Positions 5,258-18,149 of a stretch of DNA of 64,000 nucleotides are shown here, one piece after another. Position 1 is the stretch's first letter; the number at the start of each line of letters is the position of its first letter. The stretch comes from Deltaproteobacteria bacterium (GTDB taxonomy: Bacteria > Myxococcota_A > UBA796 > SXON01): positions 488-64,487 of the forward strand of contig BJHF01000027.1 in the NCBI GenBank assembly GCA_014191855.1, given 5' to 3'. A program made the translations under genes and the position numbers. The notes below the pieces were generated by a model, which saw only the letters and a list, made by a program, of their open reading frames with translations, was not told the origin of the DNA and ran no database searches.

Positions 5258-6088
5258 TCACGGGTTGGGGTGCTCGGCGTGGTGCTCACGCGAGTCCACC
5301 ACCCGGCCGTATCGGTCGTAGATCGTGGCCCGGTCGGCTCCATTGTTCCAGATCGGGTCGAGATTGCCCAGGTACAGCTCGATCTGGGCTGCCGCGTCCA
5401 CGAGGTTCACTCCCTTCCCGCTGTGCAGCTTCACCGTTTGCCCCACCGGCACCAGCGCGGCGGGGAACTCCCAGTTGTTCCCGCTCACGTCTGCGATCCG
5501 GTACCCGCTCAGGTCCAACGGGCTGGGCGAGATGTTGCAGATGCGGAGATACTCCCCGTTCACGTTCTCCCGATCGTCCCCATCGGCGTTCGCGTGGAAC
5601 GAGGTGATGTGCAGCGCGCCCTGGAACCGCGCCGTGGACCAGATACCCCGCCTTGCCCCCCGGGCACGCTCCTGCGCGGCCATGAATGGCGCCATGTCGG
5701 TGTCGTCCGGCGGGATCAGGAACACGTGGCCAAGGCCAGCTTCCAGGATGGCGATGGAGAGGTTCTTCCCATCGATGTCCACGCCTGCGAGCAGCCGTCC
5801 GTACCCATCGCGCGCTCCGCTCCCCAACAACTTCACCTGCTTCTGCAGAACAAGGCTGGCGGTGAGCTCCCGCGCTTCTTGCCCGTACTCCTCCGGCGGC
5901 TTGAGTTCGGGCGTGTTCACCCATTTCAAGCGCACCTTGTCGCCCGTTGAGAGCGTCATCGTATCCCCGTCGTACACGGCGGAGACCACTGCATCCTCTG
6001 GCGGGGGGCGCGCGTCGGAGACGCGCAGCTCGTCGGGATCGACGCTCACTTCCCCGGCGAGAGCCAGCAGCGTCCAGAACAGGTTCAC
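5258..6088 (-). CDS. thermonuclease (SNase) domain fused to a lamin-tail domain (LTD)
   Basis: VYDGDTMTL...VRLKWVNTPE...YGRLLAGV...GLGHV is SNase-like. The C-terminus (ALHITSFHANADGDDRENVNGEYLRICNISPSPLDLSGYRIAD...ATIYDRYGRVVD) is LTD-like. The GTG start overlaps the upstream stop (GTGA). Confidence 0.85.
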   Translation of the reverse strand: MNLFWTLLALAGEVSVDPDELRVSDARPPPEDAVVSAVYDGDTMTLSTGDKVRLKWVNTPELKPPEEYGQEARELTASLVLQKQVKLLGSGARDGYGRLLAGVDIDGKNLSIAILEAGLGHVFLIPPDDTDMAPFMAAQERARGARRGIWSTARFQGALHITSFHANADGDDRENVNGEYLRICNISPSPLDLSGYRIADVSGNNWEFPAALVPVGQTVKLHSGKGVNLVDAAAQIELYLGNLDPIWNNGADRATIYDRYGRVVDSREHHAEHPNP

Positions 6089-8073
6089 CTCGTGCCCGAG
6101 GGCGGCGCCGCGGCCTTGGTAAACCGCCGCGCTTGCCAGATCAGGTAGGGGTCATCCGGCTCGAGTCTGGCCGCTTCACGGGCTTGAATGCCGGCCTCCG
6201 CGAGATCGCCCCGCACGTAGGCGACGACCGCCGCCGTGTCGCGATACGCGCTGTTCTTCGGGTCCGACTTCACCGCGCGCGAGGCGGCAGCAGAAGCGGC
6301 GTCCAGTCGATCTCCGCCAAGCGCCCAGTACCAAGCATCGCAATTGTCGCGCGCCGCGCCGCGCCGGAAGGGCTTGCAATCACGAGCGTACCCTTTCTCC
6401 AACGCCTCCCGGGCCGCCGGTTCGTCGGCCACGAGGCGCAGCGCTGCGCCCACAAAGTCGAGCGGCTCCGCCTCGGGGTGCAACCGACCCAAGGCCCGCG
6501 AAAGATCTGCCTTGAACGTGGAATGATCCTGCGGCTCCAGTGAGAGCGAGTACAACCACATCGCCTGGCCACCGATGGGGTACACGTCCAGCAGGCTTCG
6601 CAGGGTGCTGATCGCGCCGTAGCGATCCCCCTGCTCCAACGCCACGAGCGCGCGACGGAATAGAAATCCGCTGCCGCCGCGGTCCACCGCGATCGCCTCG
6701 TCCAACGCACGCTGCGCCTCAGCCGGTCGGTTGTTCGCCAACAGCGCATCCGAGAGGCCAACGAGCAGCTCCTGCCGCACGTCCGCGTCCGCCACCTCCA
6801 ACTTCAGCGCGAGCTGAGCACGCTCCAGCGCCTCGGCCTCCCGACCGTTCGCGATCAGCGAGCCCAGCATCGTTCCCCAGATGCCCTCGTCCACCAGCTC
6901 GATGGGGCTGAGCGAAGCGAGCCGGGCGATCGCTTCCGCATCCTTGCCGTCGTAGAAGTCCACCCGGGCCGCCAGCGCGATCAGCGCCGGGTCCTCCCCG
7001 CTGCTCGCGATCGCCTCCTGGATCGTGGTGCGCGCCGAGGTCAGCTCGTCGTGCCCGATGAGGACCTTTGCCCGCGCGGCCGCCCGCCGGGGGTCGTGCC
7101 CATGATGCGCGAGGTCCTCCGCCAACCAGGCTGCAGATGCGTCAAACACACGCCGCTTTTGCGGTCGTTCGAGCGTGAGCCGCTCGCCCGGGTAATCGAT
7201 CACAACCCGCTGGTCGCCGTAGCTACGAAAACCGAGGAGGCCCGTCGAAACCGCGCATGCGTCTGCGCCAGGATCGTCCGGACTCGACCACCGGATTGGC
7301 CCGGTGCGCTTCGCGCGACGGCCCCCAAAGGTGAGCCACGTCGCCGGGATGTGCCGCGTTTCCGTCAAGAACTGGAAGTCGGGCACCTTGTCTAGCGCCG
7401 CGCCGATCCCGACCACGGGCTCCACGCCCAGCGTCGTAAAGGGTCGGAACGGCTCCCCCGTTTGGCACCACAGGCTGGTATCCGAGGCGCCCGTGTCAAT
7501 CTCGATGGTTACCGGCACCTTGGCCGTTACCCCTTCGTGCTCCGCCTCCACCATCACATCCACGATCACGCGGTTCCCCGCCACGCGGATCTTCTGCCCT
7601 TTTCCCTTGGCTTTGTAGGTGCCCGGCCGGTGCAGCTCCAGCCGATCCGCGGGGTAGTCCACCACGACCGTGAAGTGGCTCCACACGTTGTGGCCGAAGA
7701 TCCCGTCCACCGGGATCGCCCCCGCCATGTCCGGAACGCCCGGAACGCCAGTCGCGACATCCACATTGTCCAGGGTGAAGTCCCCAAGTTTTACGTTCGA
7801 CAGCGTGGCGCGTTGCCAGCTCACGCTGCCAGAGAGCCCGGCCACCCGCCCCCCGGCATCTTCGCTCACGAGGCCGAGGCGCTCGGCGGCCTCGGGGTTG
7901 ATCACCGAGATGGCCGCGCCGGAGTCCACCAGGAACAGCCCGGTGCTGCCGTCCGGAAGCACGGCTTGTACATACACTTTGTCCGCGCCGGGCGAACCCC
8001 GCCACAGGTCGAGCGTCGTGCTGTCCCCCGCGCCCGCGAGGGCCGCCCCGATCCCTACGACGAAGCTGAACAT
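6085..8073 (-). CDS. secreted protein with two retropepsin-like aspartyl-protease domains and C-terminal TPR repeats
   Basis: LFLVDSGAAISVI and IEIDTGASDTSLW are retropepsin-type D-[ST]-G-A motifs. The C-terminal approximately 300 aa are TPR-like. The start was set at ATG 8073 (MFSFVVGIGAALAGAG signal). The longer ORF start at 8112 would overlap the upstream gene by 32 nt. Confidence 0.8.
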   Translation of the reverse strand: MFSFVVGIGAALAGAGDSTTLDLWRGSPGADKVYVQAVLPDGSTGLFLVDSGAAISVINPEAAERLGLVSEDAGGRVAGLSGSVSWQRATLSNVKLGDFTLDNVDVATGVPGVPDMAGAIPVDGIFGHNVWSHFTVVVDYPADRLELHRPGTYKAKGKGQKIRVAGNRVIVDVMVEAEHEGVTAKVPVTIEIDTGASDTSLWCQTGEPFRPFTTLGVEPVVGIGAALDKVPDFQFLTETRHIPATWLTFGGRRAKRTGPIRWSSPDDPGADACAVSTGLLGFRSYGDQRVVIDYPGERLTLERPQKRRVFDASAAWLAEDLAHHGHDPRRAAARAKVLIGHDELTSARTTIQEAIASSGEDPALIALAARVDFYDGKDAEAIARLASLSPIELVDEGIWGTMLGSLIANGREAEALERAQLALKLEVADADVRQELLVGLSDALLANNRPAEAQRALDEAIAVDRGGSGFLFRRALVALEQGDRYGAISTLRSLLDVYPIGGQAMWLYSLSLEPQDHSTFKADLSRALGRLHPEAEPLDFVGAALRLVADEPAAREALEKGYARDCKPFRRGAARDNCDAWYWALGGDRLDAASAAASRAVKSDPKNSAYRDTAAVVAYVRGDLAEAGIQAREAARLEPDDPYLIWQARRFTKAAAPPSGTR

Positions 8074-8080
8074 CGGTGCG

Positions 8081-8935
8081 CTAAACCCCCGCCTCTGTTG
8101 AAGTAGGCGCATCCAGCCGCTCCGGGTTCTCCAGCAGCGCCTTCATCTCCTTGGCCACCACGCCGCCATGGTAGCCGTCCACCACGCGATGGTCGAAGGT
8201 TCCGTTGATGTGGAGCACCCGCCCGATCACGATCTTCCCGTCCTCCACCACCGGTTTCTCCTCGATCGTGCCCAGCGTGATGATGATCGGCGTGCGCGCC
8301 AGCGGAAAGAACGGCGCGTATCCGATGGTGAGCCCGAACACGCCCACGTTGGTGACCATCGCCGACCCGAAGGGATCCCCGGGCGTGCCGAGGAATTTCG
8401 GGTTGATGTTGAGGGTGTACTGCAGAAAGTCGAGGAAACGCAGCACCGGCTTGATGAGGAAGCCAGGCAGTCCGGCCAGTCCCTTCTTCGTCTGATTGAA
8501 CTCCTCGTCGTTGCCGCTGCGGATCTTCACCGCCCGCTCGCGGATCATCTTGCCCATGGCCACCACATCGAGCTGCTCGGCGTTCTTGATCTTGATCCCA
8601 CTGAGATCAGTCTTGCCGATGTTCTCCGCGTCTTCCACCACGATCTGCATGAAGATGTCGATGTCGCGGCGCTGGTAGAGGCTGCCCATCCGAACCAGGG
8701 AATTCAGATCCCGGTGCTTCTGGATGATGAGCGCAAGTCCACGCGCCACCGCATGGCTCACCGTCACCTTCTCCCCGGAGTCCACCCGCTTCTTCGCGAT
8801 CCACGCCTCAAGCCGCTCCGATCGCACCTCCAGCGATCCGTACACGTGCGGATCGTAGGGATGGTCCCACACGTTCGCGGCGATCTGCCGGTACGTCGAA
8901 GGGTTCGGGTACCGAGTGAGCTCGATGTTCGGCAT
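8081..8935 (-). CDS. stand-alone 2-oxoacid dehydrogenase acyltransferase (E2) catalytic-domain protein
   Basis: The C-terminal INGTFDHRVVDGYHGG matches the E2 catalytic DHRxxDG motif. There is no lipoyl or E3-binding domain in the 284 aa. Confidence 0.85.
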   Translation of the reverse strand: MPNIELTRYPNPSTYRQIAANVWDHPYDPHVYGSLEVRSERLEAWIAKKRVDSGEKVTVSHAVARGLALIIQKHRDLNSLVRMGSLYQRRDIDIFMQIVVEDAENIGKTDLSGIKIKNAEQLDVVAMGKMIRERAVKIRSGNDEEFNQTKKGLAGLPGFLIKPVLRFLDFLQYTLNINPKFLGTPGDPFGSAMVTNVGVFGLTIGYAPFFPLARTPIIITLGTIEEKPVVEDGKIVIGRVLHINGTFDHRVVDGYHGGVVAKEMKALLENPERLDAPTSTEAGV

Positions 8936-10539: not shown

Positions 10540-10872
10540 TCAGCAGACGCGACGATAGAGTCCCCGCCGACCGAGGGCGCCGGTTTCACCTGGCTGGGGA
10601 TGCTCCGGCGGCCGTTTCATCCGGGTGGGGTTGGTCCAGTCGCCAGCCCCGACGCTGTCGCGACACCACAACGCGCGCACCGCGAAGCGCTCGTCCCACC
10701 GGCGGCTCCGCGGTGCAGCGATGGCGAGAAACGTACCTGTGAACCAAGGGATCGGGCCTGCGCCATCGTCCATCCCAGGCGAGGTCGCCGTGACGCTACG
10801 CACCTCATCCGCCGCAAGTAAGTCCACCAGCGCCATGCACGGGCGGGTGGGGGACACGAATTTCGAAGTCAC
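10540..10872 (-). CDS. hypothetical 110-aa protein (possibly a remnant domain), GTGA-coupled to the kinase gene
   Basis: The GTG start overlaps the kinase stop (GTGA). Third positions are mostly G/C. PIPWFTGTFLAIAAP faintly recalls the N-terminus of FGE-sulfatase domains. No confident family. Confidence 0.35.
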   Translation of the reverse strand: MTSKFVSPTRPCMALVDLLAADEVRSVTATSPGMDDGAGPIPWFTGTFLAIAAPRSRRWDERFAVRALWCRDSVGAGDWTNPTRMKRPPEHPQPGETGALGRRGLYRRVC

Positions 10873-13487
10873 CGCGACCGACTCGCCCAGCTAACCAGCG
10901 CCGCCGCAAGGATCGGCCCAGTGATCGGCGCGAGGCTCCCGCCCGTCGCAAGCGCAAGCGCGAGCGCGACGGCCAGGATCGCTGGCACCCAGCGCAGCCC
11001 TCGGAGCGCGGGCGGAACACGCGCGCTCGTGGCGATGAACGCCGTGCCTATACCAACCAGCAACGTGAGCACAGCCGCGAATTCCGGTGGCAGCTCGCGT
11101 GGCGCGGCCTGGCGAAGGAGCGTCTGCACCTGGGCGGCGAGCACTTCCGCTCCGTACCGCTGGCCCTCGGGCGTGCGCTGGAGGTCCTCATCCCCGAGAA
11201 GCGCCCCGACGATGGCGAGCCGCCCGCGCACGGCGGCAAGGTCACCCGTCGCTGGGATGGTCGTGACAGGACCCGATGGCGCGATCCCGTAGCTGTTTCG
11301 CGAAAGTGGACTTCGAAGCGCGCCGATCCGGAGCTCGCCGTCCACCGTCTCCGGCTCCGCGGCGCCCACAAGGGCCCCGGCCGCCAGGATTGACACGTGC
11401 CAGTACGTCCTCCCGGCGTCGTCAGCCACGCGCACTCGAGCGCGCCGCACCCACCCGATCGTGAGGTCGGCCAACGCCACGGCGTGGCCAAGCTCCGCCG
11501 CTTCCCCGAGCGCGTGGCTCCCCGGCCGCCGCACCTGCTCGCCATCCATCCGGACCGGCAAAATGACCGGAATGCCAGCCCGCTCGATCGCCGCGGCGAT
11601 CGCGCCGTCCTGCTCCGTTTCAGGCGTGAAGCTCACGTCGATCAGGATCGCGGCGGCCTCGGCGGCGGCGAGGCGGTCGACGAGGGCCGGCCATTCGGCG
11701 CGGAAGCTGCGTAGATCGCCCACTTCAGGGAGGGACACCACCACGACATCGTCGATGGCTACCGTTCGCCCGGCCGCGCGCAGCAGGGGGTAGTGCACGT
11801 GCACGTCCACGAGATCGGCCAGCCCCAGGAAAACCAACAGCGCAGGGGCGATCACCGCGGCTACCAAACGAAATTGTACTCGCGAGCGGAGGAGCGCCGG
11901 GAACGCGCGTGCGAGCACTTCGTCCAGGGTGCCGACCTCCAGGCGTTCAACGCCTGCATCGCTGGGCGGACTGCCGCGGGGCACGATCACGAGGACACAG
12001 CCTGCGCCAGCGGCGGCCAGCAGCTTGGCGGGAATGCCCCCCACGGGCGCGATCTGGCCATCAAGGTCTACGCCGCCCGTGAACACCCAGCCCGACGGCA
12101 CCGGGAGTCCTCGCACGGCGCTCGCGGTGGCGACCGCGACGGCCAGCGCCAACGAGGTGCCGTGGATGCGAAATCCTGCGCCGCGTACCTGCCAGACGAC
12201 GCGCCGCTCCCCCGCTGAGGCGCCGAGCACGGCCGCCACGGCGATCTGCGCGGCGACCTGCGCGTCGCGCTCCACGTCCTGCGGAGTCGAGATGCCCGTG
12301 GCCCCGCTGTACACCTCGACAATCACCTCGACGAGGTGTCCCCTCCCCGCGCCGTCGACCACGAGCGCGGTCGCGACCCCGGGTCGTCCGGAGGGGGTCG
12401 GCTGCGTCGGGGGCAGCGGCTGCGCCCGGGCGGCGTGCGTTTCCGGGGCCGCGCCGTCGGGGTCTTCGGCGGCCTCCACCGCCATCGTCTCGCCGGCAGA
12501 CTGTGGCGGGGCATTCCACACCCTGGATCCCTCGAAAATTGCGCGCACGGTCGCGATGTCAGGCGGCCGCGCCTGAGGATCCACCCGGAGGCAAGCCTCG
12601 ACGGTGCGGCGCCACGCTTCCGGCACCCCTGATCGGGCCTGCCCGAGCGGGAGGTACCGCCCGGTGCTCGCGGCGGCGAGCACCTCCCACGCCGCCTCCC
12701 CTGCGAAGGGCGGGTGACCCGTCACCATCGCGTAAAGGGTTGCGCCAAGGCTCCAGATGTCCGCGCGCATGGTCACGTCGCGCGCGCTCCGAGCCTGCTC
12801 CGGGGCCATGTAGTGCGGCGAGCCGAGGGCGATGCCCGCGCGTGTCGAGTGCCCGCCGGCCGCCTCGCCGTCTGCCCGCGCGATCCCGAAATCCGAGACC
12901 TTCGGCACCGGAGGCGAAACGGCGTCGTCGAGCAGCACGTTCGCGGGCTTGATGTCGCGGTGTACGATATTATCGGCGTGTGCCGCATCGATCCCATCGA
13001 GGATCGCGCGGAAGACTCGCTCCACTTCCGCGAGCGGGAGGGGTTGGCCGGCGATTCGCTCGTGTAGGTTCCCACCGCTCACGAACTCCAAGAGCAACGC
13101 CGGCGCGTCGCCCACCTGGAGGATGTCGATCACCCCAACGACGTTTTGGTGGTGAAGCTGGGCGAGCACCCGGCCTTCCGTGTAGAGCCGCGCCCGCGTC
13201 GCCGCGTCGGCTCCGTCCAGGACCTTGAGCGCGCGGACGACGCCCAGATCGCGATGCCGAACCTGGTAAACGGTGGCCTGCCCGCCCCGGCCGACCACGC
13301 GCTCCACCACGTAGCGATCGACGATGTCGCCCGGTTTCAGGGTTCCGCTCACGGGCGGAGTGTAACGGGCGGCCGATCGCGGCCGCAGGCGGGAGACCGT
13401 AGACCGTAGGCTGGAGCGGAACCGAGAGCGGAGCTCACCGCACCAGTCGCACCGACCTCCCTCGCGCGTCGAGTCCGAGGAGAACAT
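10869..13487 (-). CDS. Ser/Thr protein kinase fused to a Lon-type (S16) protease-like domain and a C-terminal CHASE2 sensor with TM helices
   Basis: Hanks kinase motifs are present: GRGGQATVY..ALKVL, HRDIKPANVLL, SDFGIAR, YMAPEQ. The middle segment HGTSLALAVAVATASAV...VFTGGVDLDGQIAPVGGIPAKLLAAAGAGCVLVIVP aligns with the Lon proteolytic domain. A TM helix follows, then a CHASE2-like segment (VVVVSLPE...ILIDVSF...IPVILPV), then terminal TM helices. The start at 13487 is uncertain because it overlaps the upstream ORF by about 50 nt. Confidence 0.9.
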   Translation of the reverse strand: MFSSDSTREGGRCDWCGELRSRFRSSLRSTVSRLRPRSAARYTPPVSGTLKPGDIVDRYVVERVVGRGGQATVYQVRHRDLGVVRALKVLDGADAATRARLYTEGRVLAQLHHQNVVGVIDILQVGDAPALLLEFVSGGNLHERIAGQPLPLAEVERVFRAILDGIDAAHADNIVHRDIKPANVLLDDAVSPPVPKVSDFGIARADGEAAGGHSTRAGIALGSPHYMAPEQARSARDVTMRADIWSLGATLYAMVTGHPPFAGEAAWEVLAAASTGRYLPLGQARSGVPEAWRRTVEACLRVDPQARPPDIATVRAIFEGSRVWNAPPQSAGETMAVEAAEDPDGAAPETHAARAQPLPPTQPTPSGRPGVATALVVDGAGRGHLVEVIVEVYSGATGISTPQDVERDAQVAAQIAVAAVLGASAGERRVVWQVRGAGFRIHGTSLALAVAVATASAVRGLPVPSGWVFTGGVDLDGQIAPVGGIPAKLLAAAGAGCVLVIVPRGSPPSDAGVERLEVGTLDEVLARAFPALLRSRVQFRLVAAVIAPALLVFLGLADLVDVHVHYPLLRAAGRTVAIDDVVVVSLPEVGDLRSFRAEWPALVDRLAAAEAAAILIDVSFTPETEQDGAIAAAIERAGIPVILPVRMDGEQVRRPGSHALGEAAELGHAVALADLTIGWVRRARVRVADDAGRTYWHVSILAAGALVGAAEPETVDGELRIGALRSPLSRNSYGIAPSGPVTTIPATGDLAAVRGRLAIVGALLGDEDLQRTPEGQRYGAEVLAAQVQTLLRQAAPRELPPEFAAVLTLLVGIGTAFIATSARVPPALRGLRWVPAILAVALALALATGGSLAPITGPILAAALVSWASRSR

Positions 13488-13806
13488 CGCCGACCGGCGG
13501 CACGGGCACCGGAACGCCAGGGGCGAGAGCGACGCGCACCTCCCCGACCTGGATGGTCAGCCCCCCGGGGCCTGCGGTCTGCGTGGCGAAGCCGCCGCCC
13601 ACCACCACCGAGTAAACCGAGTCCCGGTAGGTGTGCTCGCCGTCCGCAGCGGCCAGGCGAATCGGGCTTTCCACTTCTTCCAAGGCCTCGAACTCGTCGT
13701 CCTCCTCGCTGCGCTCTCGCGCGTGCCGGCGCCGCGCCGCGAGCCGCGCGAGCCCATCGAGCAGCGGCTGCCCGGCGAGCAGGCCCTCCCAGCGATCGCG
13801 GCTCAC
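13435..13806 (-). CDS. small hypothetical protein (about 123 aa) between the sigma-like and kinase genes
   Basis: The GTG start overlaps the stop of the sigma-like gene (GTGA). It has an acidic helical N-half (ERSEEDDEFEALEEVE) and a beta-rich C-half. The longer upstream ORF extension was rejected. Confidence 0.45.
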   Translation of the reverse strand: MSRDRWEGLLAGQPLLDGLARLAARRRHARERSEEDDEFEALEEVESPIRLAAADGEHTYRDSVYSVVVGGGFATQTAGPGGLTIQVGEVRVALAPGVPVPVPPVGDVLLGLDARGRSVRLVR

Positions 13807-14771
13807 GCGCCCTCCCCGATGCTGTCCAACACGTCCAGCACCAGCTCCAGGAGCGCCTTGGGCGGAGGCCTCGACGCTTCCGGCGCGCCCAGCTCCCCCG
13901 CCAGCCGCGCAACGAAGTGCTCCCCGATGCGCTCCAGCGCGCGCGTAACCGCCACACGGTGCGCGTATTGGGGCAGACGCGCACACACCTCATCGTAGCT
14001 CTCCCCCCCGATGATCGCGCGGAGCAACGCCCGATCCTCCGAGGCGAGGGCCGACCATCCGGCAAGCACCGCCGCGCGCACGGCCCCCCGACTCAGCAGG
14101 TCTTCGCTGTGCGTTTCTTCGGCCGCCTCGGGCCCCGCAGGCGCGCCGATCACCGCTTCGAGCACGCGGCACAGCTGCGACTGGGTGCGGGGGCCGCCCA
14201 GCCGAAGTGCGCGATCAACCAAGGTGGGGACGTCCCGCTCCGGGCTCCCGCGAAGCAGCTCCACGAGTGTGGCTTCATAGCGGATGGCTGAGATTCCTTC
14301 GAGGCGCCACCGCGGCGGGGCGCCGGCGATGCGCTCGGCGACGAGGCGGAGGTGGTCGCCGATCGCGCCGTAGAGATCCGCGCGCCAAACGAGACGCGGA
14401 TCGGAGGAGAGATTGTGCGCGTAGTCGGCGCGCAGGAGCTCGCGGGTGATCGAGAGCTTGGCGTAGAAGCTATGGTAACGGATCGCGCGACCATCGAAGC
14501 TCTCCAGGGCGTACGCGCGAAACGGCGTGCGACCGGAGAACGGGAAGCGGCCTTTCGGGGTGCGCGCGCACGTAGTGTAGACGCGCGCGCCGAGGTCGGC
14601 GATGGCCTCGGCGTGCTTGCGCCCCAGGGCGAACCAGGCGTCCGGGTAGGGGCGCGCGACGCTCGCGACGTGCCGGAGCACCTCCGTGAGCAGGGCGCGC
14701 CCGCTCCCCTCGTCGCGGTCGAAGGCGGCCACGAGCGAGGGGAGCGGGTCATCGAAACGAATGACGGACAT
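13803..14771 (-). CDS. ECF-like sigma factor with extended region2-region4 linker
   Basis: N-terminal FSGRTPFRAYALESFDGRAIRYH resembles sigma region 2.3-2.4 (F.G.S.F..WL..I..N...D..R). C-terminal LASEDRALLRAIIGGESYDEVCARLPQYAHRVAVTRALERI resembles the region 4 HTH. About 130 aa separate the two regions. Confidence 0.7.
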   Translation of the reverse strand: MSVIRFDDPLPSLVAAFDRDEGSGRALLTEVLRHVASVARPYPDAWFALGRKHAEAIADLGARVYTTCARTPKGRFPFSGRTPFRAYALESFDGRAIRYHSFYAKLSITRELLRADYAHNLSSDPRLVWRADLYGAIGDHLRLVAERIAGAPPRWRLEGISAIRYEATLVELLRGSPERDVPTLVDRALRLGGPRTQSQLCRVLEAVIGAPAGPEAAEETHSEDLLSRGAVRAAVLAGWSALASEDRALLRAIIGGESYDEVCARLPQYAHRVAVTRALERIGEHFVARLAGELGAPEASRPPPKALLELVLDVLDSIGEGA

Positions 14772-14802: not shown

Positions 14803-15885
14803 TTAGAGGCCGTTCAAGTAGGCGTTGAAGTCGGCCTCGCTCGTCGGGAGCAGGTCGACCGACAGCGTTTCCTTCATTTCACCTCCACCCACGTCCACGC
14901 CAACCGGGATGGTGTAGGCGTCGTCATGGAAGAGGAAACGCTCCCCGTCGATGAGCGAGTAGATCACGAGCTTCCCGGTGATCCCCACGGGCATGCCGTT
15001 CATGTAGCTGCGGTAGCCGGGGAGGCTGGAGTCCCCGGTGTACAACTGCACGGCGCTGCTCGCCCCCGCCGGGAGGAAGAACACGGCCGCTTCGGTGGAG
15101 AAGTGGGAGAGGAACACCACGTCCAGGGTCACGTGGACCGCGGACAGGTTGGTGATCGCATCGCAGTTGTAGGCGGAGTACCCGCCGATCCCACCTGCCC
15201 ATACCCCGCTGAACTGGAAGGCGTTGTCCCCGGAGCCGTCCTTCCCGCGCACCAACGTTGCCGTCGCGGGCTCTTCCAAGGGGCGCGTCCAGGCCTCCCC
15301 CGCGTCCCCCGCGACGAAGAGCTCCATGCCCGAGGCGGTGCTGTCCCAGGCGTCGAAGGCGAGGTCCGTGATGCCGTTGATGGCCAGCGGCTGGCCTTCC
15401 TGGGAGGCCTTCAGGGCGAACGAGCCGCTCGTCGCGAGCCAGTCACCGTCAGCGGTGAGCGTGGCGCGGCCGCCGCGGACCATGTCGCCGAGGGAGTCGT
15501 ACTCGGTCAGCTCGACGTCCACGGCGCCGCCGGCCAGCCGGCCGTCGCTGAAGGAGAAGGCTTTGGGGCCGATGGTGATGTGGACGGAGTCGCCCGCGAT
15601 GGCACCCCCGACCGACGCATCCGCGATCGTGAACGCGGTGGGCTCCGGGCCGAGCAGCGCGAAGAGCTCAGCCAGCGTCGCAGGCGCGGAGCCGCCGCCG
15701 CCGGTGTCCCAGCTGTCGTTGGCCTCGCCCGTGTCGAGCCGGTCGCCGGAATCCGCGCTGTCGCCGAGGGCTCCTCCGCCCGGCGCGCCGGAGTCGTCGA
15801 GCTGGGCCTCGGTTTCCGCGGCCAGCGGCAGGCAGCCGGAGAGCAGCGCCAAAAGGGTGGGGACGAACGGACAGATGGAACGCAT
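14803..15885 (-). CDS. lipoprotein of unknown function
   Basis: The internal ATG at 15885 gives MRSICPFVPTLLALLSGC (signal plus lipobox), followed by a Ser/Asp/Gly-rich linker. Its stop is 31 nt upstream of the sigma-like gene on the same strand. Confidence 0.7.
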   Translation of the reverse strand: MRSICPFVPTLLALLSGCLPLAAETEAQLDDSGAPGGGALGDSADSGDRLDTGEANDSWDTGGGGSAPATLAELFALLGPEPTAFTIADASVGGAIAGDSVHITIGPKAFSFSDGRLAGGAVDVELTEYDSLGDMVRGGRATLTADGDWLATSGSFALKASQEGQPLAINGITDLAFDAWDSTASGMELFVAGDAGEAWTRPLEEPATATLVRGKDGSGDNAFQFSGVWAGGIGGYSAYNCDAITNLSAVHVTLDVVFLSHFSTEAAVFFLPAGASSAVQLYTGDSSLPGYRSYMNGMPVGITGKLVIYSLIDGERFLFHDDAYTIPVGVDVGGGEMKETLSVDLLPTSEADFNAYLNGL

Positions 15886-16011
15886 GGGCACCTCGGGGTG
15901 AAACGGGGCCGGGGAAATCCGGTCCGTACGATGCTCCAAGGGACAGGTGCGCGCCCGTTACGAAACCAACGAAATAATTCTGGCCGCGCGGTCCGTGATA
16001 CGAGGATCGGC

Positions 16012-17019
16012 GTGCTTCACCGGCTGTTCCTCCTCTGCCTGCTGATCCTCGCGGTGCCGTCGCGGGCGTTCGCCGCCTGGGGGGAGATCGTTGAGCTGTC
16101 GGCGCCCGACGCGCAGGGGCAGTGGCGTCCGGTGGCGACGACCACCCGCGTGCTCATCCTCCGCGGCGAAGCCAGACTTCCCGCGGCGCGAGGGATGGTG
16201 CTGGAGGAAGGGGATCGCATCGTTACCGAAGAGGCCCGCGCGCGGCTCACGGTCGGGACGGGGGAGGAGATTGCGGTTGGCGAACATGCCGATCTGGAGG
16301 TTCGCGCCCGAACGGTGCTCCAGCGGCTCGGCGACGTATACTACTCGGTGCGCGGCGCGTTCGAGGTGCGCTACGGAACCGTTCAAACGACCGTCGAAGG
16401 CACCGAGTTCGCCATCGACGGGAACGGCGCCTCGGTGCGGATCACGGTCATCGAGGGGCGCGTGCGGGTGAACGCGCCCGCCGGGGAGACTCGCCTCCGA
16501 CGATGGCAGACCGTGGAGTCGCCCGCGGAGGCGCCGCCCGCGTCCGGGCTGGGCCTCCGACCGGTCACGAAGCCGGCCGCCGCCGCCCGCATTGTCGAGC
16601 GCGCCTTCGGTCGGCCTCGGGCGGAGATCGGACTCTTTGGCGCCGCCGGTCTGGAGCCGGGCGGGGTCACCGTCAACCTTCGGGCGCTCGCTCGCGTTCG
16701 GCTCGCTGGCGCCCTCCGCCTCGCGTTCGACACCGCGATCGGCACCAACGGCCGCGCCGAGGGGCTCCGGCTGCCGCAAGCCATGGGTCTGGAGCTCGGC
16801 TTCGGCCCCCTGGCCGTCGGCACCCAGCTCGTCGGCACCTTCGAGCTCGCCCGCCTCAACTGCGACGGCGCCTACACCGCGCTCCACCTCGGCGGCGTGG
16901 GCTCAGTCCGATACGGCCTCCCGCTCTCGCGGCGGGTATCCGCACAAGTGCTGCTTCGCGGCGGCTATGTTCAGGGACCGATGGGCGACCTCGGCCTCGG
17001 CTTCGCGGTGGCGCTATGA
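16012..17019 (+). CDS. secreted FecR-domain protein with beta-strand-rich C-terminus
   Basis: GTG at 16012 is preceded by GAGGA. VLHRLFLLCLLILAVPSRAFA is a signal peptide. LEEGDRIVTEEARARLTVGTGEEIAVGEHADLEV...TTVEGTEFAI is a FecR domain. The upstream part of ORF 14686..17019 was rejected. Confidence 0.8.
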   Translation: MLHRLFLLCLLILAVPSRAFAAWGEIVELSAPDAQGQWRPVATTTRVLILRGEARLPAARGMVLEEGDRIVTEEARARLTVGTGEEIAVGEHADLEVRARTVLQRLGDVYYSVRGAFEVRYGTVQTTVEGTEFAIDGNGASVRITVIEGRVRVNAPAGETRLRRWQTVESPAEAPPASGLGLRPVTKPAAAARIVERAFGRPRAEIGLFGAAGLEPGGVTVNLRALARVRLAGALRLAFDTAIGTNGRAEGLRLPQAMGLELGFGPLAVGTQLVGTFELARLNCDGAYTALHLGGVGSVRYGLPLSRRVSAQVLLRGGYVQGPMGDLGLGFAVAL

Positions 17020-18149
17020 CGCTGTTCTTCATGCTCGGCTGCACCTTTGTGCTGGACGATCAGCCGTGTTCGCCGGATACCGGCGGCACGGACACGAACA
17101 CCGGCATCGACTCGGCCGACACGGCGCTCGACAGCGCGCCGGACACCGCCGAGGACAGCGGCTGTGAGACGTCGGCCCTGTTTCGGGACGTAGACGGCGA
17201 TGGATTTGGGGACCCCGAGCTATCGGAAGACCGTTGCCCGACCGAGGGGTGGGTAGCCGAAGCGGGGGACTGCAACGACGCCGATGCCGACGTGCACCCG
17301 GGGGCGCGGGAGCGGTGCAACGGCACGTCCGACGCTTGCGACGCCGCCTGGGCCAATGACGACGGCCTGGCTACGTTCACCGATGCGCTCGGGGCGATCG
17401 ATCTAACGGCCGAGCTCGCGGGTATCGACGGCGCCCCGGCTTTCGCTGCGTTTGGCGTGGGCTCTCTCGCGCTCTGCACCGGCACCTGGTTCGTCAACCT
17501 CAGCTTCACCGCCGGGGGCGTGGTGAGCGGCGTCGGCGACGGGGTCGTGCTCGACGGGGGCGGGGCGGGATCCGTGCTCGATCTGGGCGCGGGGGACTAC
17601 GACCTCTCGGGTCTCACTGTCCGCAACGGCGCGGGGTCGGCGGGGGGCGGAATCTCAGTAAACGGAGCCGACAACCTTTCGATAACGGGGCTCGTCGTCG
17701 AAGCCAATACGGCCGCGATTGGGGGTGGTCTGAGCATGGGTACGCCGACGGTGGCGACGATCGTGGACTCCACGTTCTCGGGGAACGCGGCCACGGGCGA
17801 CGGCGGGGGAGTCGCCGTTTCCGGCGGGAGCCTCCTGCTGCGAAGCTCCACGGTGTCGGCCAACCACGCGACGGGCCAGGGAGGCGGGATCTATGCGGAG
17901 GATGCGGCCCTCACGTGCATCGGCGATGGCGCGGTCGAGGGCCTCGGAGTTCTGGAGAACGCATCCGACGCCAAAGAGAACGAGGTTCGGCTCGCCGGCC
18001 GGTCGTTTACCCTGCTCGCGGAGTCGTGCGATCTCGCGCGAACCGCGAGCAGCCCGCTTGGCATCGTTTCGGTGGAGGCGGTCTCCGATTTTGCGTATGG
18101 GCCGGATGCGACGTTTTCCTGTGACTCGACGGGGTGCGTGGGTCCGTGA
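17016..18149 (+). CDS. lipoprotein with putative metal-binding (MopE-like) motif and right-handed beta-helix repeats
   Basis: The ATG overlaps the FecR stop (ATGA). MTLFFMLGC is a lipobox. DVDGDGFGD...CNDADADVHPGARERCNG is the putative metal-binding motif. Repeated GG.I...S.L.. segments (GGGISVNGADNLSITG, GGGLSMG, GGGVAVSGGSLLLRSS, GGGIYAED) are beta-helix-like. Confidence 0.8.
   Translation: MTLFFMLGCTFVLDDQPCSPDTGGTDTNTGIDSADTALDSAPDTAEDSGCETSALFRDVDGDGFGDPELSEDRCPTEGWVAEAGDCNDADADVHPGARERCNGTSDACDAAWANDDGLATFTDALGAIDLTAELAGIDGAPAFAAFGVGSLALCTGTWFVNLSFTAGGVVSGVGDGVVLDGGGAGSVLDLGAGDYDLSGLTVRNGAGSAGGGISVNGADNLSITGLVVEANTAAIGGGLSMGTPTVATIVDSTFSGNAATGDGGGVAVSGGSLLLRSSTVSANHATGQGGGIYAEDAALTCIGDGAVEGLGVLENASDAKENEVRLAGRSFTLLAESCDLARTASSPLGIVSVEAVSDFAYGPDATFSCDSTGCVGP

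Follow-up and report, generated by a model that had tools for sequence, protein, structure and literature searches.

Which of its cytoplasmic domains carries the output of a receptor that places both a protein kinase and a protease-like module on the inner side of the membrane? The question is raised by an open reading frame (ORF) of 872 amino acids (aa), at 10869..13487 on the minus strand of a stretch of 64,000 nucleotides from a Deltaproteobacteria bacterium (GenBank assembly GCA_014191855.1, contig BJHF01000027.1, positions 488 to 64,487), which we refer to as the window. A preliminary description, made from the sequence alone, recognized in this frame a Hanks-type serine/threonine kinase, an embedded Lon-type protease domain and a C-terminal CHASE2 sensor. 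By combining profile searches, structure models, an exhaustive collection of relatives and a comparison of gene neighbourhoods, we arrive at a reading that we favour by a modest degree, in which an active Lon-type peptidase is the receptor's constant output and the kinase an accessory to it.

Domain layout of the receptor and its Lon-type domain

The NCBI gene model for the receptor is 827 aa long and is annotated as a hypothetical protein. Translation probably begins, as in that model, at the GTG of codon 46 in the 872-aa frame (nt 13352), because homologues start at the equivalent residue and because the first 17 codons of the long frame lie within the conserved upstream gene (13435..13806). 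Together with a codon check, this gives a probable extent of 10869..13352 on the minus strand, with the stop codon at 10869-10871; residue numbers refer throughout to the 872-aa frame. The Pfam profiles for all three modules proposed in the preliminary description, Pkinase, Lon_C and CHASE2, scored above their gathering cut-offs.

The Lon-type proteolytic domain occupies residues 370-533 (11889..12380, minus strand), on the cytoplasmic side and next to the membrane. The Lon_C profile (PF05362), on which the preliminary description had staked the assignment, matched residues 443-504 with 32.7 bits against a cut-off of 21.1; the ChlI profile matched residues 421-504 (32.2 bits, cut-off 27), and NCBIfam gave sub-threshold LonB-type matches over residues 417-526. 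A phmmer search of all chains in the Protein Data Bank (PDB) aligned residues 376-506 with positions 17-154 of the A. fulgidus LonB (AfLonB) protease domain at E = 5e-11 and returned about fifty further Lon, RadA and BrxL chains. The best sequence matches were of the LonB type (AfLon 1z0e, MjLon 1xhk and the NCBIfam LonB models). An AlphaFold2 model of residues 366-538, built from a 53-sequence family alignment, reached a mean predicted local distance difference test score (pLDDT) of 95.4 and a predicted template-modelling score (pTM) of 0.91. Foldseek placed about 180 columns of this model on Lon protease domains, with template-modelling scores of 0.78-0.83, root-mean-square deviations of 2.3-3.5 Å and E values of about 4e-13; the matches comprised E. 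coli Lon, Meiothermus LonA, Yersinia Lon, A. fulgidus LonB, Thermococcus Lon and human LONP1 (PDB entries 3wu6, 3wu3, 1rr9, 4ypm, 5e7s, 6on2 and 1z0b). RadA protease-like domains (5lkq, 8rxc) were also among the top structural matches. Despite a Lon_C match that covers one third of the profile (positions 109-170 of 205), the PDB alignment and the AlphaFold superposition therefore indicate a complete domain, and as modelled the segment is a whole Lon protease fold.

In the phmmer alignment, with its AfLon register fixed by the E506A and D508A mutant chains, Ser445 (codon at 12153-12155, minus strand) aligns with the catalytic Ser509 of AfLon, and Lys488 (12024-12026) with Lys552. The blocks that had been matched to Lon S16 in the preliminary description were thus correctly placed, and the Ser and Lys of the dyad are retained as it had claimed. 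We aligned all 112 related Lon-like domains recovered to one profile and counted the sequences with a residue at each position. Ser445 is kept in 107 of 108 domains, Lys488 in 104 of 109 and Gly443 in all 108, and the Lon-typical Thr470 (12078-12080) is present in 101 of 109 and replaced by Ser in six more, in domains that are otherwise about 30-50% identical to that of the window. This conservation fits selection for catalysis and speaks against a decayed, RadA-like relic. The superposition on Lon by which the dyad geometry was to be confirmed bore out the backbone fold, and the residues align; the placement of the dyad is addressed here by fold and alignment only. Taking sequence and model together, we consider the peptidase probably active.

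No AAA-family Pfam match was obtained in the receptor even at E = 10, and no Pfam match to a PDZ domain; what precedes the Lon-like domain is a 60-aa low-complexity linker and, before that, the kinase. Since the AAA+ module that would stand N-terminal in the same chain is not present, we class the protein as Lon-like and not as a Lon protease. The word 'embedded' in the preliminary description has to be given up: the Lon-like domain does not lie inside the kinase, but comes after it and abuts the first transmembrane (TM) helix, TM1. The Pro/Ala-rich linker between the two (residues 309-369; 12381..12563, minus strand) has no domain match, aligns poorly and varies in length among homologues, from 12 to 159 aa with a median of 56 (14 clusters).

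The kinase domain is complete, as first described. Pkinase (PF00069) matched residues 59-308 (12564..13313, minus strand; cytoplasmic) over profile positions 1-252 of 263, with 151.8 bits against a cut-off of 31.7. The window protein holds the Gly-loop, K88 (codon at 13224-13226), E104, H176-R177-D178 (Asp178 at 12954-12956), N183, D199-F200-G201 (Asp199 at 12891-12893) and A228-P229-E230. Among 37 representatives, the Gly-loop, the VAIK Lys88, the αC Glu104, the HRD Asp178, Asn183, DFG, APE, the subdomain IX Asp and the subdomain XI Arg are each kept in 33-37. With its active site intact in sequence, the kinase looks competent.

CHASE2 (PF05226), the predicted extracytoplasmic sensor, matched residues 576-813 (11049..11762, minus strand) over profile positions 37-252 of 257, with 45 bits against a cut-off of 26.3, and is kept across the family. 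Hydropathy predicts one TM helix on its N-terminal side and several on its C-terminal side, in agreement with the preliminary description. TM1 spans residues ~539-562 (11802..11873, minus strand) and is preceded by a cytoplasmic RSRVQFR stretch. The C-terminal hydrophobic helices (residues ~803-868; 10884..11081, minus strand), delimited by hydropathy and sequence inspection, probably form three TM spans and lead into a short Arg-rich cytoplasmic tail. Hydropathy peaks, given as starts of a 19-residue window, fall at 535-546, 800-806 and 827-838, and the Arg-rich flanks of the helices lie on the predicted cytoplasmic side. The protein is thus predicted to have its kinase, its Lon-like domain and a short tail in the cytoplasm, and CHASE2 outside it. 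A CHASE2 histidine kinase has been described with the same TM-flanked layout (PMC5192318).

The receptor family and its architectures

We collected relatives by an exhaustive HMMER search of 1.84 billion cluster representatives with a kinase-free Lon-plus-CHASE2 profile, which returned 96 representatives at E <= 1e-30. A first, word-indexed search had yielded about 10 relatives; a word-indexed search with the Lon-domain profile, which the exhaustive search replaced, gave 3 weak matches, probably owing to an alanine-rich query. To count architectures, in clusters at 50% identity, we scored 150 listed matches with our own kinase, Lon-like and CHASE2 profiles. Among the matches listed, the order kinase-Lon-CHASE2 occurs in at least 17 clusters, with 7 further kinase-Lon sequences that are mostly short. 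Lon-CHASE2 without a kinase accounts for 34 clusters, kinase-CHASE2 without a Lon-like domain for 13, and Lon-CHASE2 followed by a C-terminal kinase for one (P0012), and the Lon-like domain appears in other contexts in 36. The domain order of the window protein is therefore found in other genomes, as the preliminary description had proposed to check.

The 'kinase with an inserted Lon-like peptidase' of the preliminary description proved real as a combination, but its order is better read as that of a Lon-CHASE2 receptor that has gained a kinase. The family core is better described as a receptor protease to which the kinase is an add-on, for three reasons: 34 of the clusters have no kinase, and in one more it is C-terminal; the Lon-like domain invariably adjoins the membrane, with a median of 4 aa from its end to the beginning of the TM1/CHASE2 profile (n = 46 family members), whereas the kinase sits on a variable linker; and the conserved gene partners described below accompany kinase-less receptors too. 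In most members without a kinase, a conserved helical extension of about 70 aa precedes the Lon-like domain. We considered whether the kinase-less relatives could be gene fragments and rejected this, since P0007, P0009 and the protein of locus L014 are intact genes; the explanation fits P0004 only.

P0004, the closest kinase-less relative (69% identical), has a DDE_Tnp_1 transposase gene exactly at the kinase-coding position (L002 7250-7978, the same in L009) and looks like a receptor truncated by an insertion sequence that still keeps an intact Lon-CHASE2 ORF. P0012 (906 aa) combines a 70-aa N-terminal extension, the Lon-like domain and CHASE2 with a kinase beyond the TM helices. P0076 (807 aa) has the order kinase, Lon-like, kinase without CHASE2, and could represent either a chimeric sequence or a genuine soluble form.

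Relatives of the Lon-like domain that keep the dyad also occur at the N-terminus of STAND-type NTPases, in arrangements such as Lon-like, nSTAND1 and FGE-sulfatase (P0107) or Lon_C, NACHT and TPR (P0158), and in further relatives it is joined to DUF4384, SLH or RNase HII. Effector domains of STAND proteins usually stand at the N-terminus, and this placement therefore fits an output role of the Lon-like domain in the receptor. It suggests that the AAA-less Lon domain is a general modular protease effector; a literature search for STAND proteins with Lon effectors found no paper describing them.

These data bear directly on the view that the Lon-like domain is a non-catalytic scaffold, an oligomerization hub or binding module such as the Lon-fold domains of RadA and ComM, and that the kinase is the real output. 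The RadA domains among the top structural matches, the ChlI/ComM-type Pfam and RadA NCBIfam matches and the missing AAA+ module would all suit such a scaffold, as would the 13 sister clusters that signal by kinase-CHASE2 alone and the behaviour of the Bacillus subtilis protein YlbL, which was inactive in vitro when purified without its TM helix (PMC6051672). The near-invariance of Ser, Lys and Thr over 112 otherwise divergent domains would be hard to reconcile with it, and in the 34 kinase-less clusters the Lon-like domain is the sole sizeable cytoplasmic domain and must therefore be the output there. We regard a purely structural role as rather improbable.

Every traced locus and every named member of the family comes from a metagenome or a metagenome-assembled genome (MAG) of uncultured Myxococcota-like bacteria, and the named members are all labelled hypothetical. 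Domain shuffling of signalling proteins is common in Myxococcota. The MAG records L010, L011 and L012 are titled 'uncultured Enterobacteriaceae', 'Klebsiella sp.' and 'Enterobacterales' yet hold members of the family, and look like mislabelled bins; L010 is the same contig as the locus of P0005, and the other named sources are Deltaproteobacteria or Myxococcota MAGs.

Conserved partner genes

Four genes of the window run in the same direction on the minus strand and probably form an operon, with the receptor gene at its end. The first encodes a putative lipoprotein of 360 aa with an LLSGC lipobox (14803..15885, minus strand); it has no family match, and its gene is kept only in the closest relative (tblastn match only in L002/L009). 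It is followed by the gene for an all-helical protein of 322 aa with a helix-turn-helix (HTH)-like C-terminal motif (13803..14771, minus strand), and then by the gene for a protein of 123 aa with a GTG start (13435..13806, minus strand), which overlaps the stop of the 322-aa gene by 4 nt. As seen in an alignment of three orthologues, the 123-aa protein has a basic helical N-terminus, a disordered-looking acidic stretch and a C-terminal part without recognizable domain; neither the protein nor its orthologues gave a family match, only sub-threshold noise. Tblastn found it in L001, L002, L007, L017, L018 and L023, and wherever a locus was examined for one, the gene for the 322-aa homologue is followed by an overlapping ORF of 123-165 aa.

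Divergently from these four genes, the plus strand encodes a FecR-domain protein of 362 aa with an N-terminal signal-like hydrophobic segment (15931..17019; PF04773, 26.9 bits against a cut-off of 24), which is a candidate envelope co-sensor for CHASE2. Its C-terminal region of about 150 aa is rich in Gly, Leu, Ala and Arg, ends in GLGFAVAL and might be a β-barrel or membrane-associated; it is reminiscent of NsrA, the outer-membrane partner of the Sinorhizobium CHASE2 cyclases. The next gene, overlapping the FecR-like stop by 4 nt, encodes a protein of 377 aa with weak Pfam Beta_helix and Cu-binding_MopE matches (17016..18149, plus strand). This β-helix protein is kept in closer relatives only (tblastn in L001, L002 and L011; partial in L007, L018 and L033). 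In the more distant kinase-Lon-CHASE2 loci L007 (10964-11920) and L016 (6322-7290), the gene directly after the FecR-like one encodes an RCC1/WD40_RLD-like β-propeller, which may be a lineage-specific component of the module.

We compared neighbours by tblastn over the homologue-encoding contigs, five species-representative genomes and eighteen metagenome contigs, and counted which genes occur within 10 kb of the receptor in 20 separate Lon-CHASE2 loci for which some flanking sequence exists. By this measure the FecR-like gene is linked to the receptor in 18 of the 20 loci and the 322-aa gene in 14, most linkage-negative loci being truncated contigs. The reverse look-up gave a similar picture: of four distant 322-aa homologues on long contigs (43-53% identity), three have a receptor within about 5 kb, and the fourth (L015, see below) has none within 10 kb. 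The small protein and its 322-aa neighbour, which the preliminary description had singled out for assay, are thus indeed linked to the receptor. Partner linkage is seen also at the kinase-less receptors L014, L021, L024 and L028, and so belongs to the Lon-CHASE2 core. The FecR-like neighbour is shared, in addition, at locus L006, by the kinase-CHASE2 sister group (for example P0010), which adjoins the family.

The identity of the 322-aa protein is a separate matter. Its 63 homologues are all unnamed or 'hypothetical' and none has a Pfam domain; searches of Pfam, NCBIfam and PADLOC returned nothing for it, and PDB profile searches nothing relevant. Its AlphaFold2 model is all-helical and multi-domain (pLDDT 89.9, pTM 0.64), and the best Foldseek match had E = 0.37, with about 17 of the best 50 weak matches being sigma-70-family chains of RNA polymerase holoenzymes. 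An hhalign comparison of the C-terminal L-x-x-E-D-R-x-L-L...G-x-S-Y-D-E motif with region 4 of RpoE, for which an approximate RpoE sequence was used, gave a probability of 4.9%. The 'sigma-like' label of the preliminary description accordingly found no significant support in any profile, fold or hhalign comparison, and we treat it as a lead, not a finding.

The gene pair matters to another account of the Lon-like domain, in which it would act on its own chain. Here, on signalling, it would cut its own polypeptide in the linker, in cis or between neighbours, and release an N-terminal cargo from the membrane, namely the kinase in the window protein and the 70-aa helical extension in kinase-less relatives. 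Birnavirus VP4, a Ser-Lys protease of the Lon fold, processes the polyprotein of which it is a part. The N-terminal part does vary among family members (kinase, ~70-aa helical extension, little or nothing) over a constant Lon-TM-CHASE2 core, and a Pro/Ala-rich, variable and probably disordered linker is the kind of segment that a motor-less Lon peptidase could cut, judging from the specificity of LonC (PMC3391209). The 53-sequence alignment, however, shows no conserved cleavage motif upstream of the domain, the extension of the kinase-less forms abuts the domain with almost no linker, and the kinase of P0012 lies at the C-terminus, past the TM helices. Self-cleavage would also leave the conserved 322-aa/123-aa pair unexplained, and we give it little credence.

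The neighbourhood also speaks against a conflict or anti-phage system, in which a kinase and a Lon-like protease would be paired as in BREX (PglW, BrxL) or carried as in effector-bearing STAND proteins, in place of an environmental sensor. The idea draws on PADLOC and NCBIfam kinase matches to PD-T4-6, MADS6 and PglW, on BrxL among the weak PDB sequence matches and on the Lon-like relatives attached to STAND/NACHT NTPases. The library matches, however, fall on the generic kinase only (about residues 7-380 of the 827 aa), with none of the best 25 on the Lon-like domain or CHASE2, and the PADLOC and NCBIfam scores are far below equivalog cut-offs. The neighbours have no PADLOC matches, the partners are a periplasmic FecR-domain protein and cytoplasmic proteins of no recognized kind, with no restriction or abortive-infection gene among them, and the genes of the window, which include DnaE, a purB-like gene, MlaE and Lgt, mark it as ordinary chromosome. 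With PADLOC matches coming from the generic kinase domain only, we rejected defence as the main explanation; it is highly improbable. That the three-module ORF is a misassembly or a frameshift-fused gene pair, as a metagenome-assembled source might suggest, is effectively refuted by the recurrence of the uninterrupted architecture, in at least 17 clusters from independent NCBI, ENA, JGI and Logan assemblies, in proteins 40-92% identical to that of the window.

Proposed mechanism and relation to known systems

In the receptor-protease reading, the periplasmic CHASE2 domain would work with the co-encoded, secreted FecR-domain protein and control the motor-less Ser-Lys peptidase next to TM1, with the Hanks kinase on its flexible linker as a second output. 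An envelope signal would change the oligomeric or conformational state of the CHASE2/TM bundle, and in the changed state the juxtamembrane peptidase would be assembled or activated. The active sites of Lon can adopt inactive or active conformations, and they are competent only once the ring has assembled. Clustering would also bring the tethered kinases together and so allow trans-autophosphorylation, as is the case for other receptor Ser/Thr kinases whose juxtamembrane linkers are disordered. Lacking an unfoldase, the peptidase would cut only unstructured segments of dedicated substrates; the 123-aa protein, with its disordered-looking acidic stretch, would be the most obvious candidate, and the 322-aa helical protein with its HTH-like C-terminus would be a regulator that is released or modified. 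We hold the chances of signal-gated activation of the peptidase to be about even, and propose the 123-aa or the 322-aa protein as its substrate or target only tentatively, from their place in the gene neighbourhood.

Several observations weigh against this reading. The substrate proposal is drawn from gene neighbourhood only, and is correspondingly tentative, and the 322-aa protein belongs to no recognizable family. In locus L015 (9266-11489), a 322-aa homologue and its overlapping 165-aa ORF occur without a Lon-CHASE2 receptor within 10 kb; there the homologue lies directly downstream of a bona fide extracytoplasmic function (ECF) sigma gene (Sigma70_r2 plus r4_2), so that a conventional sigma factor can accompany the pair. 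Lon typically forms hexamers, which would be unusual for a sensor with four TM helices, and the inactivity of purified YlbL in vitro implies that AAA-less Lon domains can be hard to activate. Given the 13 kinase-CHASE2 sister clusters, the kinase may also be the main output in the window protein itself.

Each element of the receptor has a counterpart among known proteins. Cyanobacterial Ser/Thr kinases with CHASE2 have been catalogued (cbSTKII-CHASE2; Anabaena alr1869 and all4838; PMC2176072) and share with the receptor an N-terminal cytoplasmic Hanks kinase followed by a membrane-embedded CHASE2; they differ in that the receptor has a complete Lon-type domain between kinase and TM1, and in that most of the receptor family has no kinase. 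With LonA and LonB (MEROPS S16), especially the archaeal membrane-bound LonB, the receptor shares the proteolytic fold (template-modelling score ~0.8), the Ser-Lys dyad and the Thr and, in the case of archaeal LonB, the association with the membrane. Unlike these enzymes it has neither the AAA+ unfoldase nor the Lon N-domain, is fused to a kinase, is 22-28% identical, and has its membrane anchor after the protease domain, as part of the sensor.

The closest functional analogies for the predicted peptidase are Lon proteolytic domains that act without ATP-driven unfolding. LonC of Meiothermus degrades only unfolded substrates, without ATP (PMC3391209), and YlbL/DdcP of B. subtilis is membrane-anchored, lacks AAA+ and depends in vivo on its Ser234/Lys279 dyad for clearing the small checkpoint protein YneA (PMC6051672). 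LonC differs from the receptor in being soluble and in keeping a degenerate AAA-like domain; YlbL combines a PDZ domain with one TM helix at its N-terminus and has no sensor or kinase, whereas the TM segment of the receptor follows the Lon-like domain. Neither is coupled to a CHASE2 receptor, and the relationship to YlbL is one of functional analogy only.

Fusion of a peptidase to CHASE2 has one precedent, a metacaspase-CHASE2 protein in Trichodesmium erythraeum (gene 638105709; PMC2853523), which implies that receptor-protease architectures exist on the CHASE2 scaffold. That peptidase is a C14 cysteine enzyme and not an S16 Ser-Lys one, and the fusion has no kinase and is likewise uncharacterized. 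Envelope partners of CHASE2 receptors are also on record: the BiofilmReg LysM-FecR protein of Burkholderia partners a CHASE2 histidine kinase (PMC5192318), and the CyaD1, CyaD2 and CyaK receptors of S. meliloti act with the envelope partner NsrA (PMC13001267). These systems resemble ours in pairing a CHASE2 receptor with a periplasmic or outer-membrane partner, which contains a FecR domain in Burkholderia; their histidine kinase or adenylate cyclase outputs lie C-terminal to the TM bundle, whereas the outputs of our receptor, a peptidase with or without a Hanks kinase, are N-terminal.

CHASE2 is a widespread bacterial sensor whose ligands and output logic are poorly understood, and the same holds for Lon-fold peptidases without an ATPase. 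The family described here joins the two, placing an AAA-less Lon-type peptidase a few residues from the membrane and accompanying it with three conserved partner genes. Its building blocks and its sensor-plus-enzyme logic are familiar; the type of output and the partners are new. In the literature we found no paper on CHASE2 receptors that have a Lon-type peptidase as their constant juxtamembrane output, on a Lon-type peptidase and a Hanks kinase combined with CHASE2, or on the gene set of FecR-like protein, 322-aa protein and small ORF. The preliminary description recognized no described kinase with an inserted Lon-like peptidase; our literature search likewise found no paper on the combination, but the protein is not unique, having the company of the clusters counted above.

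As a compact system, the family lends itself to studying how a receptor might turn on a protease directly, and how a single receptor might combine proteolysis with Ser/Thr phosphorylation. Given the relatives on STAND/NACHT NTPases, it brings the AAA-less Lon domain into the range of modular protease effectors, and it flags as a likely signalling component a family of ~320-aa proteins without Pfam, NCBIfam or PDB-sequence match. More speculatively, and we think this unlikely, Lon-CHASE2 proteins could constitute a previously unrecognized class of one-component 'receptor proteases' in which ligand binding by CHASE2/FecR directly gates a peptidase that cleaves the 322-aa protein and its small partner, releasing a new transcription regulator, and in which the kinase-bearing subfamily integrates phosphorylation and proteolysis on the same substrates. 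If true, such a logic of transmembrane signalling would differ from two-component systems, from the ECF sigma cascades of regulated intramembrane proteolysis and from classical receptor kinases. The family is coherent, fairly large and experimentally approachable, and its support comes from sequence, models and gene neighbourhood.

Two further proteins of the window are unusual in their own right and appear unrelated to the receptor. In one, of 675 aa (6085-8112, minus strand), a long TPR region is joined to a retropepsin-like aspartyl protease domain (Asp_protease_2, gag-asp_proteas); the other, which comes after it, is a 284-aa protein in which a 2-oxoacid dehydrogenase acyltransferase catalytic domain is represented by its C-terminal part only.

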